The notes under the pieces: generated by a model
Databases searched by the model: none
What the model saw: only the letters and a program-made list of their open reading frames with translations
Told to the model about the DNA's origin: nothing
Translations under genes and position numbers: made by a program
Part shown: piece by piece, positions 1,787 through 8,945 of the stretch
How positions within the stretch are numbered: position 1 is the first letter of the stretch
How the letters are laid out: every line of letters begins with the position of its first letter
Origin: a virus
Lineage: Duplodnaviria; Heunggongvirae; Uroviricota; Caudoviricetes
Virus record (IMG/VR): IMGVR_UViG_2671180431_000011
Reading direction: 5' to 3' (one strand)
DNA length: 26,193 nucleotides

Positions 1787-2254
1787 TCATCGAAGGCATT
1801 GCGTCCTGATGTATTCCTGAAGCGTTCTCAGTGCTGTCTGGTCTCTGATGATTCCGTCCCGGATACCGAGAACGTTTCGTCCAGCAACTGGAGAGAGTTC
1901 GACGGTGGCATCATTGCCCATGCCGGAGGCGCTGGAGGTTTCGGCTGAGGATGGCACAGAGCATTTTCCTTTGACGAGCACCCGACCACCATTATCAAGC
2001 TTGCGCCGAAGAGCATCATTTTCAGCTTTCGCATCAGCCAACTCCTTCGTGTATTTAGCATCGAGTACATCAGCAGCACGCTGGCGTTGCTGCATGTCAG
2101 TAATGGTGGCGGTCGCCTGCTTCAGCTCACTGACTTTTTTATCACGCTGTTCTTTGTAGGCGATGGCGTTATCACGGTAATGATTGACCGCCCACGACAG
2201 GCAGACGATGATGCAGATAACCAGAGCATAAATAATCGCGGCGACTCTGCTCAC
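1787..2254 (-). CDS. Rz i-spanin (lambda Rz-like)
   Basis: [33 protein letters not shown] closely matches my recollection of lambda Rz. Probable GTG start at 2254-2252 overlaps the endolysin TGA (GTGA). The track ORF extends to a TTG at 2269. Confidence 0.8.
1828..2034 (-). CDS. Rz1 o-spanin lipoprotein, embedded in Rz in the +1 frame
   Basis: [21 protein letters not shown]: signal peptide plus lipobox Cys, then a Pro-rich segment ([11 protein letters not shown]). ATG at 2034-2032. Fully nested inside Rz, as in lambda. Confidence 0.7.
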
Positions 2255-2784
2255 TGATCTATCCCCCAACAGGCTAATGCGCTTTCCTGGTCACGACGAA
2301 TAACCTGTCCATAGCAGTTATTTGAACGTATGCGGCAATCGCGCCCACCATCTTTTATCCACCAGCGAATCGCCTCGCATGCACCTTTACGATCACCAGC
2401 ATTCAGCCGCTTATAAAACGTCGACGGAAAACACTTACCGGGGCCAATGTTATAGGGACAAAATGACGCGATACCCGCTTTTTGTGGCTCGGTCAGTGGT
2501 ACTTTAATATTGCGCTCCACCCATGCCAGCGCCTTATCACGCTCAATGGCGTTGACCTGGTCGCATTTTTCCTTCGACAGTTTCATACCGGGAAAAACGG
2601 GTTTTCCATCCACCATCGTGGCACCCCGACAGATGGTCCAGATGCCGGACCCATCGCGGTATGCCGTTGTGTGGTTACCTTCTTTTTCATCCAGAAACTG
2701 GTCGAGAATATCAGGCGCGGGCGCACCGACGGCAATCAGTGCCAGAACGGCAGCCGACAGGCCGTATCTGATTTTTGCGTTCAT
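2251..2784 (-). CDS. SAR endolysin (phage lysozyme, T4/P21 type)
   Basis: Weakly hydrophobic Gly/Ala-rich N-terminal segment ([18 protein letters not shown]) typical of a signal-anchor-release domain, followed by a lysozyme catalytic region ([22 protein letters not shown]). Confidence 0.85.
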
Positions 2785-2847
2785 GGATATTTATCAGGAT
2801 TTATCGGTTTCTGCCCACGGACAGGTTTATCTGTTCCGGTCAGTGAC

Positions 2848-3198
2848 TTAAGGTTGTGATTCCGGAGGAGTCTTCAGAGAACCAGTAATTCTTCCTGGTA
2901 GCTTTCCTTTGTAGGTTATCCAAACATTCTGCGCATCTAAAATTACGGGGCGCTTTTCCGGCGACTGCTCATCCCCTTCACATAACCCGGCAGCAACATC
3001 CAGGAAGACCTGTCTGATGCTCCTTCTGGCTGCTGCCTCATAAACCTCCAGCGCGGCACCTTCAACACGGTCCAGCGAGATGTCCAGGTCAAAAATTTCA
3101 CCGTCAAAGCGTTTTTTGTCCCGTAACGCTAAAGTTACCGTAACTTTATTCTCAAAATTGCGGATCCCTTTCACAATCAGTTCATAGTTTTGAGTCAT
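2848..3198 (-). CDS. Hypothetical protein, 116 aa, inserted between holin and endolysin
   Basis: Long ORF in the same orientation as the lysis genes, lying in the gap between S and R. No family recognised. Confidence 0.4.
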   Translation of the reverse strand: MTQNYELIVKGIRNFENKVTVTLALRDKKRFDGEIFDLDISLDRVEGAALEVYEAAARRSIRQVFLDVAAGLCEGDEQSPEKRPVILDAQNVWITYKGKLPGRITGSLKTPPESQP

Positions 3199-3202
3199 TG
3201 AA

Positions 3203-3418
3203 TTACTCTCCCCGTGCAGCCTTACGCTTGTCTTCTTTAATCTTGAAATAAAGGTTTGTCAGATACGTCAGCAAGCCAAATACCAGACTACCCAGCACAC
3301 CTATTGCCGCCCACTGTGAGGGCGTGACTTTATCGAGCAACTGTAAAAACCAGTACCCGGCACTACCTGCTGAGGTGCCATAGGCGACACCCGTTGTTAA
3401 CTTATCCATGGATTTCAT
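3203..3418 (-). CDS. Class II pinholin (phage 21 S21-like) with dual-start motif
   Basis: [71 protein letters not shown], 71 aa, two transmembrane domains, Met1-Lys2-Ser3-Met4 dual start. ATG at 3418 preceded by GAGGTGGGG. The track ORF extends upstream to 3481. Confidence 0.85.
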
Positions 3419-3485
3419 AACCCCACCTCGCAGATGCGGGTGCTGTGTAATGGAAATAAAAAGGCCACCTGACGTGGCCACCAGA

Positions 3486-4538
3486 TTATTTCCCCACCAG
3501 CTCGTTTATCTCTTTCACTGTCTGATTAAACCGCTCTGACTCAAGCTCAACACCTAAGGCCCGACGCCCCAGCGCCATTGCTGCTTTTATTGTGGAACCG
3601 GATCCCATAAAAAAATCAGCAACCAGATCACCTGGTCGACTACTGGCATTGATTATTTGCCTGAGCATATCCGCCGGTTTCTCACACGGATGTTTCCCCG
3701 GGTAGAACTGAACGGGTTTATGCATCCAGACATCGGTATAAGGCACGGAGACTGATACGGAGAAATAGCGCCGGAGAGATTTAAACTCATCCAGCAATTC
3801 AGAATATTTACGATTCAGTGAATCATAAGATGCCACCAGCTGGTGGTGTGGTTGTTCCAGTTGTTGTTCCTGAAACTTCTCTGCCGCTATACGGGAAAAC
3901 AGTGCCTGTAACTTCCGATAGTCAGCCTCATTCGGCAACTGCCACTGACTGGCACCAAACCAGTGGGAAACCATATTTTTCTTACCTGTGGCTTCGGCAA
4001 TTTGTTTTGCCGTTATACCCAGTTCGGCACGAGCATCCCTGAAATACGATATCAGCGGTGCCATTATGTGCTGTTTGAGTTCCCTTTCTTTTGCTGCATA
4101 GCCGTCACTTTTGCCGCGATATGGCCCCTGGTAATGTTCAGCAAACAGAACGCGCTCTGTGGCAGGAAAATATGCGCGCAGACTTTCTTTATTACACCCA
4201 TTCCAACGTCCGGACGGCTTCGCCCAGATGATATGGTTAAGCACGTTGAAACGTTCACGCATCATGATCTCAATATCAGATGCCAGGCGATGCCCACAGA
4301 ACAGGTAAAGGCTTCCGGCAGGTTTTAACACCCGCCAGAACTGGGCCAGACAGTGGTCCAGCCACTTAAGGTAATCTTCGTCCCCTTTCCACTGATTGTC
4401 CCAGCCGTTGGGTTTCACCTTGAAGTACGGCGGATCGGTAACAATCAGGTCAATGGAATCATCAGGCAGGGACTGAATAAAATGCAGGCAATCAGCGTTG
4501 ATTAAATCAACACTGTTTATTTTTACAGTATTTTTCAT
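3486..4538 (-). CDS. Orphan DNA methyltransferase (N6-adenine or N4-cytosine, DPPY class)
   Basis: DPPY motif near the N-terminus (LIVTDPPYF) and an AdoMet-binding motif near the C-terminus (DFFMGSGST). This order suggests a beta-class amino-methyltransferase. No adjacent restriction gene. Confidence 0.8.
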
Positions 4539-4688
4539 GGATCAGTAAGCGTAACTCTGGTAGGCTCACTCTGCTTTTGCGCTAAAGCAGTGGGCCGTGG
4601 TTCGCTTGTGACCAGTAAGCATGAGCGAATGGCTGGCAGGTGCTACCAACACCCACCAGCCGCCCATTTTCACAGCAGGAAACCGCCA

Positions 4689-4916
4689 TTACTGGCAGCG
4701 TCTGAATTTATTCCCGTACCCGCCGTTATCCTTCGCCAGCCCCGCCAGAACTAACTGAGTCAGTATTAACTGGCACCGGGCTTCGCTTACTCCGGTAGTT
4801 CTCGTCATCATGCGTGGCGTTACCCACTTGTCAGCAGGTAAGAAATGAAGGACTGCGGCGGCGGTTTCTGTCATATCTTGCTGTTTTAGCATGTCTTTTT
4901 CCCTTCTGGTTAACAT
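4689..4916 (-). CDS. Hypothetical small protein, 75 aa
   Basis: ORF in late-operon orientation between tR' and the methyltransferase. No family recognised. Confidence 0.3.
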   Translation of the reverse strand: MLTRREKDMLKQQDMTETAAAVLHFLPADKWVTPRMMTRTTGVSEARCQLILTQLVLAGLAKDNGGYGNKFRRCQ

Positions 4917-5012
4917 GACATACCAATAACTCTTGTCTAAAAAGCCAGCAAGATAAAAAGTCAGTATTCACGACCACCAGCGTGTTTACTGTATTGCACC
5001 AAGTTTACAGGT

Positions 5013-5040
5013 ACAAAAAAACCCGCTCAGTGGCGGGTTC
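5013..5040 (-). terminator. Intrinsic terminator downstream of Q (tR'-like, end of a short late leader RNA)
   Basis: On the minus strand, AACCCGCCACTGAGCGGGTT forms a hairpin followed by TTTTTTT (plus-strand 5014-5020 is an A-run). It lies about 105 nt downstream of the Q stop, the expected position for PR'-qut-tR'. Confidence 0.55.
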
Positions 5041-5145
5041 TTAAATCTTATCAACGGTAGACATACAAAGCCCATCGTTGTGAAAATCTTATCCATATTT
5101 TTTGAAAAACGCAAGCATCATGTCGTCATCTTCGGCGAAAACCAT

Positions 5146-5898
5146 TTATCTTGTCACCTTTCTCAATTGTATCTCTGCATATGCTTCTTCCTGCCAGCAC
5201 TTTGTAACCAGTTTATCAATGACATCTGCATATCCTTTGTACCACTGATAATCCGTCAGGTCTGGTACCAGCTTCTGGACATGAAGCCGCGCCAGTGTGG
5301 TTGGTAAACGGCTAAACCGGTTTCCATTGCAACGCCCACAAACCTTATAAACAGGCGTGCCATGAAGCCGGGTTCTTTTTTCATCCAGGACAATACCTTT
5401 ACCCTTACACCCTCTGCACGCTGTGCTGACTTCTCCCTTACCATGACAATGCTGACACAGTTCCTTCACCCACTCTTCCTTGATAACAGATTCCCCGCTT
5501 CTGGAGTGTTTCACCACTTCGCGCAATACATTATGAAATCCAGTACCAGCACAATGCTCACAGCGAGCCTTACTTGCCGCAGACCTGGAATAATCAGCAA
5601 AGGCAAAATTCACAAGGTAAGGGATGATCTGTAACCGGGTTTCTTCACTCAATTTGTTCAATGTCGGGTTATCCAGTGCCATCGCGTAATTGAGCAGACC
5701 TTCAATCGCAAACTGAGGATCCTGAACACCAACTTTTGCCAGGAATAAGGCAAACCCAAGCGGTGCTTTCGACTGCACCATCCCCTGCGCAGCCATTACA
5801 TCCGTAATTGTTAAACCACCCGAGCCTGTCGCCGGTGCGTCATCGCTCAATTTTGGAGATTTTGGGGAGTAATATTTCGGTAAGGCTTCAAGGTTCAT
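5146..5898 (-). CDS. Late-gene antiterminator Q (250-aa QuuQ-like family)
   Basis: 250 aa with multiple Cys/His clusters (CEHCAGTG, CQHCHGKGE, CRGCKGKG, CGRCNGN). Positioned immediately upstream of the terminator and lysis genes. Confidence 0.75.
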   Translation of the reverse strand: MNLEALPKYYSPKSPKLSDDAPATGSGGLTITDVMAAQGMVQSKAPLGFALFLAKVGVQDPQFAIEGLLNYAMALDNPTLNKLSEETRLQIIPYLVNFAFADYSRSAASKARCEHCAGTGFHNVLREVVKHSRSGESVIKEEWVKELCQHCHGKGEVSTACRGCKGKGIVLDEKRTRLHGTPVYKVCGRCNGNRFSRLPTTLARLHVQKLVPDLTDYQWYKGYADVIDKLVTKCWQEEAYAEIQLRKVTR

Positions 5899-5911
5899 GC
5901 TCGTTCTCCAC

Positions 5912-6907
5912 TTACGCCAGTACGCCTATTGCCAGCGCACGATCGATAAAACGAAATATCAGCTCCAGCTGGGAGCCATACTTCTCTTCAAATGCCACGG
6001 TATCCGCATGCAGCTCGTCGTGATGCTTTCTGCACAAAGGCAACACAAAGAGGTCATGCGCTTTTGTACCCATTCCCCCCTGACCGTGGCCTATCAGGTG
6101 GTGGGGATCATCAGCAGGCTTTCCACAACATGCACACGGCTGTGTCTTAACCCAGCGCGTGTACTTTTCATTAACCCAGCGGCGACGTTTTGGGCGTAAC
6201 ATAAAAGACTCCGGCGACTCCGGATCCACTTTCAGCGCCAGCACCTTTTTCGCCTTATCCTGGATGATGCTGGTGGCAGGAACCGAAGGCACAAGGTCAC
6301 TTTCCCGGGTGACAGACGGCACAACAGGCTTCGGTAATCTCAGTGCCTTACGGGCTGCACTTTCCGGTAAGGCATCCGCCAGGTCATTACGAATCAGCCA
6401 CCAGCACAGTTCCGGCATTGTCACAACGTGACTGTCATCAAAACCGAGATCCCGACGCACAACAGACAACACCCAGCGGGCACAGTTATCCGTTGCCATT
6501 GATTCCAGCCGTTCCGTGAACTGATCGCGCAGCTGGTTATCGCAGTGCCAGCACAGACGGATTGCGCCCGGCGCGTGTCGCATTGTTGTCATGTTCTCGC
6601 TGTGCCAGTCGGAATGAGGCCACTGGCAGCCTTTTTCACGAAGTAACCAGCTTTCAAGACATTCCACGCCACCAGCACGACGGATCACTGCCTCATTGCG
6701 GAACACGGCCCGAACGACAGGATCATCCGCCAGCGGTTGTGATGCCGCCGGAACGGCACCACTGGCAAAAGATGAATAACGTTCCGGCTCAGGCTCCAGC
6801 AGGACACGCCCCTGCATAAACAGGGGCATCAGCTCTGAACCAGGTCTGAACAATACGATCCCCATACGCGGGGCAATTTCAGGGGTCAGTAGTGCTCTCA
6901 CGGTCAC
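5912..6907 (-). CDS. DUF968-like nin-region protein with a C-terminal HNH-like Cys/His motif
   Basis: 331 aa. C-terminus CACCGKPADDPHHLIGHG...CRKHHDELH. Position between KilA-N and Q is typical for DUF968 proteins of lambdoid prophages (from memory). Confidence 0.55.
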   Translation of the reverse strand: MTVRALLTPEIAPRMGIVLFRPGSELMPLFMQGRVLLEPEPERYSSFASGAVPAASQPLADDPVVRAVFRNEAVIRRAGGVECLESWLLREKGCQWPHSDWHSENMTTMRHAPGAIRLCWHCDNQLRDQFTERLESMATDNCARWVLSVVRRDLGFDDSHVVTMPELCWWLIRNDLADALPESAARKALRLPKPVVPSVTRESDLVPSVPATSIIQDKAKKVLALKVDPESPESFMLRPKRRRWVNEKYTRWVKTQPCACCGKPADDPHHLIGHGQGGMGTKAHDLFVLPLCRKHHDELHADTVAFEEKYGSQLELIFRFIDRALAIGVLA

Positions 6908-6908
6908 C

Positions 6909-7751
6909 TCAATGTACGGTATCGAGCAGCTTTAACAGCTCAGGGAATCGGGATTCGAAGAAATGCGGCTGCGTCTCGCGCGGATTTGCGGGACTGGTGA
7001 TGTTCTTGCCGAACATGCAGCCTTTCGCTGTCAGTGACCAGAATTTTTTGATGTTGTTAATCGCGGTACGGCTGTATCGTTCGCGCTGCTCGACGATCCC
7101 CAGCTTCACCATCTGGTGATATGCCTGATTAGCTGTCAGGCGGATACCATACTGCTTCAGCAATGCACTCAGTGACAGCGTGGGGCGGCTTGAGCCATCA
7201 GGCGCGTCAGCAGGAGCATCAATGGCATAGCGCGGTGCCAGATTCGGTAAGCCAACAGCCTCCTGGAGTTTCTGACAGGCCCCAAGCACTGAAGAGTTAG
7301 ACAGGTTTAACTCCCTGCGCATAAAGTCCAGCAGAATCACTCCAGCCTGCATCTTGTCAGCAGCCTGCCCGGATAATTTTTCCGGTGCGCTGGTTACCAT
7401 ATCGAAAGTACGGATCACCTTCAGATGGAATGACGGGCTGATCCACATTGCATAGGCATACACCAGTTCCTTGCAGACATAAGTTCCCCGTTCATTTCCC
7501 CCATGAATCACACTCACCGGGTCAACACCCAAATTCTGGGTGTTGGTCAATTCATGAACAAGTTCAACAGTTTGTTGGCTGGAAAGAAACTTTCCTGGCT
7601 CCTTGGTTCTGGCATTTGCACCAGATGCTACTGCTGCGCGATGCAGATCGTTCAGGCTGTAACGCCCATAAGCATCACGACGAACTTCAATACCATCAAT
7701 GACCATCAGATTATTCATACTTCGTTTCTCCTTTTGCTCAGGCGGCTGCAC
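6909..7751 (-). CDS. KilA-N domain protein (antirepressor-like)
   Basis: N-terminal region MVIDGIEVRRDAYGRYSLNDLHRAA resembles the KilA-N DNA-binding domain. The true start may be the internal Met (MNNLMVIDG). Confidence 0.5.
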   Translation of the reverse strand: MQPPEQKEKRSMNNLMVIDGIEVRRDAYGRYSLNDLHRAAVASGANARTKEPGKFLSSQQTVELVHELTNTQNLGVDPVSVIHGGNERGTYVCKELVYAYAMWISPSFHLKVIRTFDMVTSAPEKLSGQAADKMQAGVILLDFMRRELNLSNSSVLGACQKLQEAVGLPNLAPRYAIDAPADAPDGSSRPTLSLSALLKQYGIRLTANQAYHQMVKLGIVEQRERYSRTAINNIKKFWSLTAKGCMFGKNITSPANPRETQPHFFESRFPELLKLLDTVH

Positions 7752-8128
7752 CCGCCGTTTTCTCGTACTTACTGATAGTGATCTCGACCTTCCCTTCCGG
7801 GATAACCGGTCCCCACTCCACCAGCATTCTTTTCACCTGACTGTCGTCTTCCCACACACCCGCGTGGGTCAGGGCGTCAAACAGCGCCTTGTTATAGTTG
7901 TCCAGATCGCGGCTCCGGTTATCCGGAAGGAAACAACACGATCTCCACTGAAGCAGGTGCCGACGTTGGTTTTGGCAGACGACGTAACTGCTCAACTATT
8001 GCTGCGCACGCCGCGCTCTGGAATTTTCGCCCCGCCGCGCTTATCAGGCTCTTACCAGCAAACGCCCCTTTGTTGGGGTGTCGCCAGTACGTGTTCACGC
8101 TGGGCGGGAAAGGCAGGATCAGCTTCAT
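7738..8128 (-). pseudogene. rusA: RusA Holliday-junction resolvase, frameshifted
   Basis: N-terminal part MKLILPFPPSVNTYWRH (7919-8128) and C-terminal part RDLDNYNKALFDALTHAGVWEDDSQV (7738-7995) are in different frames. Together they resemble the 120-aa RusA. Confidence 0.6.
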
Positions 8129-8451
8129 ACTTTCAGGCCTCTCTCATGTAACCAGTGAGTTGCACGCAGCCTTGCGTTTTCCTCACCGGCAAGCAGTGAG
8201 CGGATAATCCCGACCGCCTCGCTGTCGTCGTCCTTCACCGCGGTATGAAGCGTGATCCCCCGGGCCACACCACGCTTTATCGTGATGACGCCTTTTTTCT
8301 CCAGTGCGCGAAGATGCTCCACCGCTGCATTCACTGAACGGTATCCCAGCATGGTTGCCACCTCCTGATTGGTTGGCGGAAAGCCACGTTCTTGCTGGTA
8401 AGAAATCAGCATATCCAGCACCTGCTGCTGACACTGAGTTAACGTCGTCAT
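8125..8451 (-). CDS. Winged-helix DNA-binding protein (LexA N-terminal-domain-like)
   Basis: MTTLTQCQQQVLDMLISYQQERGFPPTNQEVATMLGYRSVNAAVEHLRALEKKGVI resembles the LexA DNA-binding domain. ATG at 8451 overlaps the upstream TAA by one nucleotide (TAATG). Confidence 0.5.
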   Translation of the reverse strand: MTTLTQCQQQVLDMLISYQQERGFPPTNQEVATMLGYRSVNAAVEHLRALEKKGVITIKRGVARGITLHTAVKDDDSEAVGIIRSLLAGEENARLRATHWLHERGLKV

Positions 8452-8945
8452 TAAGCCCCCACGTAATTCCCTGACAGATACCATTCATCACCCGATACAG
8501 CGCGCTTGCTGCTTTTCCGTAAGCACCGCTCTCGACGCGCCAGAAAGTTGTTTCGTTCTGGCTGGGAGTGACTTTCACGGAATGCCGCCATCCACACCGT
8601 TGCAGCACGACGGTATAAGCCCCTGGACTCCAGCTCTTCAGCCTGGCGGGTCAGGCACAAAATCACCCGGGGATCGTTAGTGCCGACATAGAAATTGCGC
8701 ACAGGTCTGGTTTCACGAACAGGTTGTGGTTCCGGCTCCTGCGCTCTCTCAGTCAGGCGCGGGAAATGTCTGCGTGTATCTCCTTCACAACGGTGAGCCA
8801 CACGCCCACTCTGACGTAACTTGCTTGCTGACTGCAGAACGCGCTGCCGTGAGTAACCTGCAAAAGCATCCGCAATGTCTCCGGAAGTACAGCCCGGATG
8901 GGCTTCAATGAATTTCTGAACGTCATTCAAAAGACTCATGATCAC
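8451..8945 (-). CDS. Hypothetical regulatory protein; C-terminal region possibly PerC-like
   Basis: 164-aa ORF. The segment GLYRRAATVWMAAF...ERNNFLARRERCL recalls PerC-type regulators (from memory, weak). Confidence 0.35.
   Translation of the reverse strand: MIMSLLNDVQKFIEAHPGCTSGDIADAFAGYSRQRVLQSASKLRQSGRVAHRCEGDTRRHFPRLTERAQEPEPQPVRETRPVRNFYVGTNDPRVILCLTRQAEELESRGLYRRAATVWMAAFRESHSQPERNNFLARRERCLRKSSKRAVSGDEWYLSGNYVGA

Follow-up and report, generated by a model that had tools for sequence, protein, structure and literature searches.

M.EcoGII, carried by a prophage of E. coli O104:H4 C227-11, is a DNA methyltransferase that modifies adenine whatever the surrounding sequence, up to 99% of dA, and accepts dsDNA, ssDNA, ssRNA and DNA:RNA hybrids as substrates (Murray et al, 2018, PMC5778455). 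Its methylation blocks multiple restriction enzymes, and both M.EcoGII and M.EcoGI are silent in the lysogen and harmful if expressed constitutively (PMC5778455). In the model proposed for the family, the Rossmann core is dimeric, the recognition domain is an HTH of four helices and the linker is charged, and all the reconstructed M.EcoGII ancestors that were tested methylate both DNA and RNA, with non-specificity kept (PMC11551740). Homologues of M.EcoGI and M.EcoGII in other strains have been labelled 'nonspecific' by REBASE similarity (PMC6602927). Broad-spectrum DNA modification late in infection, silent in lysogens and toxic if mis-expressed, is likewise provided by Mu Mom, whose chemistry is unrelated, and by the alpha-class promiscuous phage adenine methyltransferases (Drozdz et al, as cited in PMC5778455), whose motif order is reversed relative to the enzyme described below; sequence homology with that enzyme is expected for neither.

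The window analysed here (the whole stretch of 26,193 nucleotides in viral record IMGVR_UViG_2671180431_000011) is a lambdoid E. coli prophage adjoining tRNA-Ser(CGA), mtfA, tRNA-Asn and yeeJ. On its minus strand, at 3486-4538, lies an intact ORF with an ATG start and 350 codons (ORF list and translation), the product of which is identical to RefSeq WP_000799656.1. Pfam family PF01555 (N6_N4_Mtase) covers residues 29-341 in a single stretch with a long insert (E=2.2e-42), and the Type II methyltransferase model of PADLOC matches with E=3e-152. The DPPY motif occupies residues 35-38 (window 4436-4425, minus) and the FxGxG-type SAM motif, F-M-G-S-G, residues 310-314 (window 3611-3597, minus), which is the beta-class order of an N-terminal DPPY, a central recognition domain and a C-terminal FxGxG. 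The ORF, the Pfam match and the motif positions thus bear out the initial annotation, which had placed a DPPY-class methyltransferase at 3486-4538; from PF01555 and the alignment with M.EcoGII, we assign the gene to the M.EcoGII family of beta-class N6-adenine DNA methyltransferases. A PDB sequence search and a Foldseek search with an AlphaFold model returned the beta-class amino-methyltransferases M.BceJIV, M.RsrI, M.MboIIA and CcrM, with M.BceJIV, CcrM and MboIIA as the best Foldseek matches. Note that the AlphaFold2 model, computed with 29 close homologues as input, has a mediocre mean pLDDT of 63.8 and was used for the fold class alone, past which the predicted structure adds little.

We then compared the protein with M.EcoGII, itself a beta-class DPPY...FxGxG enzyme of 349-350 aa, using the genuine sequence from the O104:H4 genome (WP_000935520.1, 349 aa), from which the version in the supplement of PMC11551740 differs by three machine-reading slips only. 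The two proteins are colinear over their full length, with no internal gap and 81.4% identity (284/349). Identity amounts to 89.6% in the N-terminal catalytic region, 76.9% in the recognition domain, 72-73% in the linkers and 77.8% in the C-terminal catalytic region; the 65 substitutions cluster in the linkers, recognition domain and C-terminal part, and the 19% overall divergence takes in ~23% of the recognition domain. In the dimer interface, the segments 97-110 and 116-140 contain only two differences, S97N and I129V, and N at position 97 is also found in the reconstructed ancestor Anc291. The features that PMC11551740 defines for the family, the HTH recognition domain (160-237) and the charged linkers absent from M.PflMI, are all present and ungapped in the alignment. 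Identity reaches ~90% with Anc291 and ~71% with SUPREM, as counted on ancestor sequences that were machine-read and hold a few errors; both of these are synthetic proteins with demonstrated methylation of DNA and RNA (PMC11551740), whereas the window enzyme is a natural one. Together with the 81.4% to M.EcoGII, these values agree with a place in the clade bracketed by experimentally non-specific enzymes.

The initial annotation considered that the target specificity could not be predicted from the sequence. With 81.4% full-length identity to a non-specific enzyme this does not hold, and non-specific adenine methylation by this orthologue can be predicted with reasonable confidence. The best-surviving alternative, still an unlikely one in our view, is a sequence-specific orphan methyltransferase with a motif of its own, divergence of the recognition domain having restored or changed the specificity. 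The 76.9% identity of this domain leaves room for such a change, and the overall fold predicted for M.PflMI, the closest relative that is site-specific, is similar. However, identity between M.PflMI and M.EcoGII is only 27%, and M.PflMI is devoid of the charged linker (PMC11551740), which the window enzyme retains ungapped, and reconstructed ancestors down to ~70% identity are still active and non-site-specific. The protein is an M.EcoGII orthologue, of an already known and widespread kind and of low interest by itself. Annotations such as 'DNA-methyltransferase' or 'site-specific DNA-methyltransferase' could become 'M.EcoGII-like, probably non-specific'. M.EcoGII is widely used for chromatin footprinting, and tool development can draw variants from natural orthologues with ~80% identity.

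The resemblance to the M.EcoGII locus extends to the surroundings of the gene. In both prophages the methyltransferase lies in the late region, downstream of Q, behind an identical small ORF and a leader that is 86% identical between the two; tRNA genes follow M.EcoGII, whereas a holin gene directly follows the window methyltransferase. The order on the minus strand of the window is Q, the late promoter PR', the terminator tR', the small ORF, the leader, the methyltransferase, a terminator hairpin and an S21-type holin, and the annotations of SfV, Ayreon and E. coli CFSAN061770 show the identical arrangement, both terminators included. Upstream of these, and on the same strand as all the features given in this and the next paragraph, are a KilA-N gene (7751-6909) and a DUF968/HNH-like gene (6907-5912). 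The Q antiterminator, 250 aa, spans 5898-5146 (PF03589 Antiterm, E=6.7e-53; phrog_127, E=1.5e-107). PR' (5114-5071) is composed of a -35 element TTGCGT (5114-5109), N17, a -10 element TAAGAT (5091-5086), TTTCAC and AACGATGGG; its counterpart in the lambda record reads TTGACT-N17-TAAATT-TGACTC-AACGATGGG, so that the layout and AACGATGGG are common to both. The promoter consensus scan missed PR' at its threshold and the call was made through homology to lambda, from which PR' is likely to be a functional late promoter with a transcription start near 5079. The intrinsic terminator tR' (5043-5014; ACCCGC-CACUGA-GCGGGU followed by U7) stands ~65 nt past this presumed start and folds with -13.9 kcal/mol (z=-4.0), a stability equalled by 0/200 shuffled sequences; terminators are annotated at the equivalent position in SfV and Ayreon. 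The PR'-to-tR' interval (5014-5079) would yield a constitutive transcript of ~65 nt, placed analogously to, though far shorter than, lambda 6S RNA and the StxS of Stx phages.

The small ORF (4892-4689, extendable to 4916; phrog_331, E=3e-26) encodes 67 aa, RefSeq WP_000917724.1, identical to the protein preceding M.EcoGII in O104:H4, and has a homologue upstream of the methyltransferase in 48/68 species-level loci. Its product shows sub-threshold similarity only to MarR_2/TrmB and is possibly a winged helix. The distance from its stop codon to the methyltransferase ATG is exactly 150 nt in the window, CFSAN061770, Ayreon, F3, PBP8 and one Stx2c phage, and 149-151 nt in SfV, phiNP and O104:H4; at many loci this stop codon falls within a terminator-like hairpin. 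Between the methyltransferase stop and the holin start, the terminator scan found a second terminator-like hairpin (3479-3455; GGCCAC-GUCAG-GUGGCC, then UUUUUAUUU) folding with -15.6 kcal/mol (z=-3.1), where SfV and Ayreon also carry an annotated terminator. The S21-type holin with its MKSM dual start (3418-3203, PF04971) is followed by a DUF1327 gene (3198-2848, PF07041), a SAR-type lysozyme (2784-2251, PF00959) and Rz with an embedded Rz1 (2269-1787, PF03245), the lysis cassette spanning 1787-3418. The Pfam gene calls, the fold of tR' and the gene order agree with the initial placement of the methyltransferase between the Q-dependent terminator and the holin. In this prophage context the gene is bracketed by terminators on both sides, and promoter-like sites in its region, as counted by the consensus scan, are no commoner than in shuffled sequence.

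The gene is found in 1,265/5,426 complete E. coli genomes, about a quarter; 613 records match its DNA at >=99% identity, one of them (E. coli CFSAN061770) at 100%. Phages Ayreon, mEp460, cdtI and SfV (orf48) carry annotated copies with 97-99.8% DNA identity over the whole gene, in the same slot from Q to holin with annotated flanking terminators; they differ from the window in their lysis cassettes and in some inserted ORFs because of mosaicism, and a search of the literature returned no biochemical characterisation of these copies. The gene of Stx2c phages is ~85% identical, and protein homologues occur across Enterobacterales with 62-93% identity.

This distribution bears on the possibility that the gene is a silent relic of a decaying prophage, never expressed or encoding an inactive protein, which we regard as quite improbable. 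Signs of decay do exist: a Rha-family gene ~2 kb downstream of the methyltransferase is broken up into a pair of ORFs (921-1220 and 1208-1687), related prophages have frameshifted lysis genes, and M.EcoGII itself was described on a 'cryptic prophage' (PMC5778455). On the minus strand, the two Rha ORFs overlap, 1208-1687 holding the N-terminal domain part of the regulator and 921-1220 the C-terminal part, which suggests a frameshift and some prophage decay; with this gene split the prophage may be defective, its structural genes falling outside the window. Yet the 350-codon methyltransferase ORF is intact with all its motifs, 613 records hold it at 99-100% identity, the viable phages named above carry it, and the combination of 62-93% protein identity across genera with freely varying third codon positions indicates purifying selection.

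As a whole, the locus is probably best explained by an intact M.EcoGII orthologue that methylates adenine in any context, stays silent in the lysogen and partially hypermethylates progeny DNA late in infection against restriction, at a low dose set through its leader. The enzyme would be a homodimeric SAM-dependent N6-adenine methyltransferase whose HTH recognition domain and charged linker contact nucleic acid irrespective of its sequence, and would therefore methylate adenines in any context. Its gene is a cassette in the 'moron' slot of the lambdoid late operon. In the lysogen, PR' transcripts are expected to end at tR', and because of this the toxic methyltransferase would not be made; upon induction, Q-modified RNA polymerase would pass tR' as well as the hairpins that lie at the small ORF's end and behind the methyltransferase gene, and the enzyme would be produced alongside the lysis and morphogenesis (head-tail) proteins. 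Replicated phage DNA would then be partially hypermethylated before packaging and, in the next host, would be safe from the numerous restriction enzymes of Types I, II and III that m6A blocks. The leader, devoid of a Shine-Dalgarno sequence, probably holds the dose low. The phage should gain from such a limit because plasmid DNA with 80% m6A from M.EcoGII transforms 10^4-10^5-fold less well (PMC5778455): full methylation would harm the phage, and hypermethylated DNA could also become a target of m6A-dependent Type IV enzymes.

Partial hypermethylation of progeny DNA against restriction, from a gene silent in lysogens, is thus the most likely role of the methyltransferase. Protection of phage DNA, one of the two functions put forward initially, is the one that the literature favours for the M.EcoGII family (PMC5778455, PMC12707154). 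The other, an altered epigenetic state of the lysogenic host, finds no support: M.EcoGI and M.EcoGII are lysogen-silent and harmful if constitutive, and the window gene, bracketed by terminators, has no promoter of its own above chance. A main substrate or purpose other than phage DNA, either methylation of RNA or damage to the host chromosome at takeover or superinfection, is slightly less probable still than the relic. ssRNA, ssDNA and DNA:RNA hybrids are indeed substrates of M.EcoGII, which is also harmful to the cell when expressed. Nevertheless, the RNA activity varies ~12-fold among reconstructed relatives, which the authors read as neutral drift, deeming the DNA activity the biologically relevant one (PMC11551740), and a late timing beside packaging fits the modification of progeny DNA.

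The methyltransferase was described as lacking a cognate endonuclease, and this stands. Searches with Pfam, PHROGs, NCBIfam and PADLOC found no restriction endonuclease family among the neighbour genes, the DUF968/HNH-like protein being the sole nuclease-like neighbour; the genes tested (small ORF, holin, DUF1327 and Q) do not form a Type II restriction-modification pair with the methyltransferase, which is the only PADLOC match. A pair with the DUF968/HNH-like protein (5912-6907), which matches phrog_96 'HNH endonuclease' and weakly Pfam HNHc_6, is very improbable, since that gene lies upstream of PR', ahead of Q, and is therefore transcribed apart from the methyltransferase, its product is without a PADLOC match, and a homologue is present at only 26/68 methyltransferase loci. 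Moreover, the genes flanking the methyltransferase differ among the 68 species-level loci. In other genomes, the same slot holds an stx2c A subunit, Tad2-like (anti-Thoeris) proteins, a Ser/Thr kinase or a PstI-like restriction-modification fusion (L004 4284-5384; L068 3745-4521; L087 3700-4683; L074 3686-4435; L053 64-2178). The slot behaves as a variable 'moron', a hot spot of counter-defence and virulence functions, with no fixed restriction-modification pair.

The sole element of the region that may be new is the leader RNA. A block of ~165 nt around the methyltransferase ATG, from -136 to +27 (window 4674-4512, minus), is conserved above the level of the gene itself. Across 50 loci the leader blocks display 81-98% mean column identity, with two variable loop stretches at 67-70%, and leader identity is 72-92% where the methyltransferase DNA identity is 63-77%. 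Conservation at the nucleotide level continues into the first 27 nt of the coding sequence (4538-4512, minus): in the same 50 loci, identity at third codon positions is 0.87 in the first 30 nt versus 0.56-0.62 beyond. A covariance model of the leader finds exactly one copy per locus, always sense and immediately next to the ATG, the Photorhabdus form being shorter, and the leader is present but unannotated in 1,065 E. coli genomes, that of M.EcoGII included.

The leader is made of two domains, all of their elements being on the minus strand. The 5' domain (4674-4601) has a pseudoknot-like arrangement supported by covariation: a P1 helix (4674-4670/4611-4607), a P2 helix (4667-4665/4623-4621), a long P3 hairpin (4661-4631) with changes on both sides at nine pairs, and a Palt hairpin (4629-4624/4606-4601), P1 and P2 joining the 5' end of the leader to the Palt loop. 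In this domain 93.4% of the cells are paired versus 32-43% in slid controls, 12 pairs have changed on both sides, and 0/500 shuffles reach the observed covariation. One Palt pair occurs as C-G 24, A-U 8, U-A 8 and U-G 3 times, another as U-A 38 and C-G 9 times. The 3' domain (4596-4541), specific to the methyltransferase cassette, consists of the conserved hairpins P4 (4596-4563) and P5 (4561-4541); a P4 base pair covaries (G-C 37, G-U 6, A-U 5). Note that the G-U versus C-A counts are mixed between the strands and do not settle the strand for every leader helix. P5 ends 2 nt ahead of the methyltransferase ATG, before which no Shine-Dalgarno sequence is found. The initial annotation expected expression at a high level; with no Shine-Dalgarno sequence and a start region behind a conserved structured leader, this is doubtful.

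Searching the whole window with Rfam at the gathering score returned two tRNAs only, and at E<=10 no match within 4539-4680; the AgvB, AsxR, Esr41 and STnc100 models do not match the leader, and a full-text literature search found no mention of its sequence. The leader is distinct from AgvB, AsxR, the Pas sRNAs, StxS and Esr41. Other sources of the conservation were also considered. A coding explanation fails on 1-nt indels that break every frame. A Chi site does not account for it: other genera have a different sequence in place of the P3-arm GCTGGTGG and retain the pairing. Finally, an antisense RNA with a promoter inside the methyltransferase start is not favoured, the best promoter-like match being 8/12 and the conservation ending at +27.

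The leader covariance model also matches lambda (E=7e-6) and HK022 (E=9e-7), in both cases between tR' and S and in the absence of a methyltransferase gene. The homologues of the 5' domain lie at 520-616 of the lambda record (L091) and 37095-37191 of the HK022 record (L090). The lambda late-leader segment between tR' and S, at ~45,015-45,099, is homologous to the 5' domain of the window in both sequence and structure, and adds compensatory changes, from U-A to C-G in P1 and again in P2. The lambda-type segment of the 5' domain is present in 125 phage records, HK97 and P22-like phages among them; HK97 and the P22-like phages, like lambda and HK022, share the 5' domain without the methyltransferase. 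Lambda and HK022 share only this domain with the window, whereas P4, P5 and the start region come with the methyltransferase cassette; the 3' domain is deleted in their versions of the leader.

These comparisons suggest that the lambda late leader itself holds a conserved folded RNA, for which the literature search returned no stated role. Two similar modules (TCGTGAA..., a hairpin, a T-run and ...GTGC) are visible in the lambda late leader, at 318-370 and 520-580 of L091; the first is the reported Hfq-bound sRNA LPR2 and the second is the homologue of the 5' domain. LPR2 is thus not the identity of the leader, as its probe maps to the neighbouring module, and neither is lambda PreS, which is located in the early left operon. 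The architecture of the leader, in which a single nucleotide separates two hairpins, is reminiscent of HK022 put; in HK022, however, the covariance model matches the late leader and not the put sites near the early promoters.

RNase III processing sites have been reported in the lambda late leader (Daniels et al, 1988, as cited in PMC7547250), and the long irregular helix of the leader is a plausible RNase III substrate. Candidate roles are RNA processing or stability, or translational control of the methyltransferase dose. We tentatively propose, with more doubt than conviction, that the block from -136 to +27 is a functional, previously undescribed structured RNA, in which a general lambdoid late 5' domain, which might be an RNase III, processing or stability site, is combined with a cassette-specific 3' domain that buries an SD-less start and sets the dose of a toxic methyltransferase. 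If so, progeny DNA would be hypermethylated partly, and not lethally, through the dose set by the leader, which bears on how a phage can express, at a tolerable level, an enzyme that is toxic for the cell and, if fully dosed, for phage DNA too.

Three further observations concern the prophage at large. A near-identical prophage of strain F3 (L003 10354-11007) carries a second methyltransferase gene, a Dam-type 'phage N-6-adenine-methyltransferase', between PerC-like and LexA-like genes; it is absent from the window, as compared at about 8450-8485. Between the integrase (15298-16284) and tRNA-Ser, a low-GC island (0.32-0.35; 16308-18565, minus) contains three ORFs of 265, 145 and 352 aa with no match in Pfam, NCBIfam or PADLOC, and may be uncharacterised prophage cargo. 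Lastly, the interval 2359-15247 contains twelve Chi sites (GCTGGTGG) where 0.8 would be expected. Ten of these sites are on the minus strand, along which the Q-to-lysis genes are transcribed; three of the twelve lie within the methyltransferase gene and one in the P3 arm of the leader.
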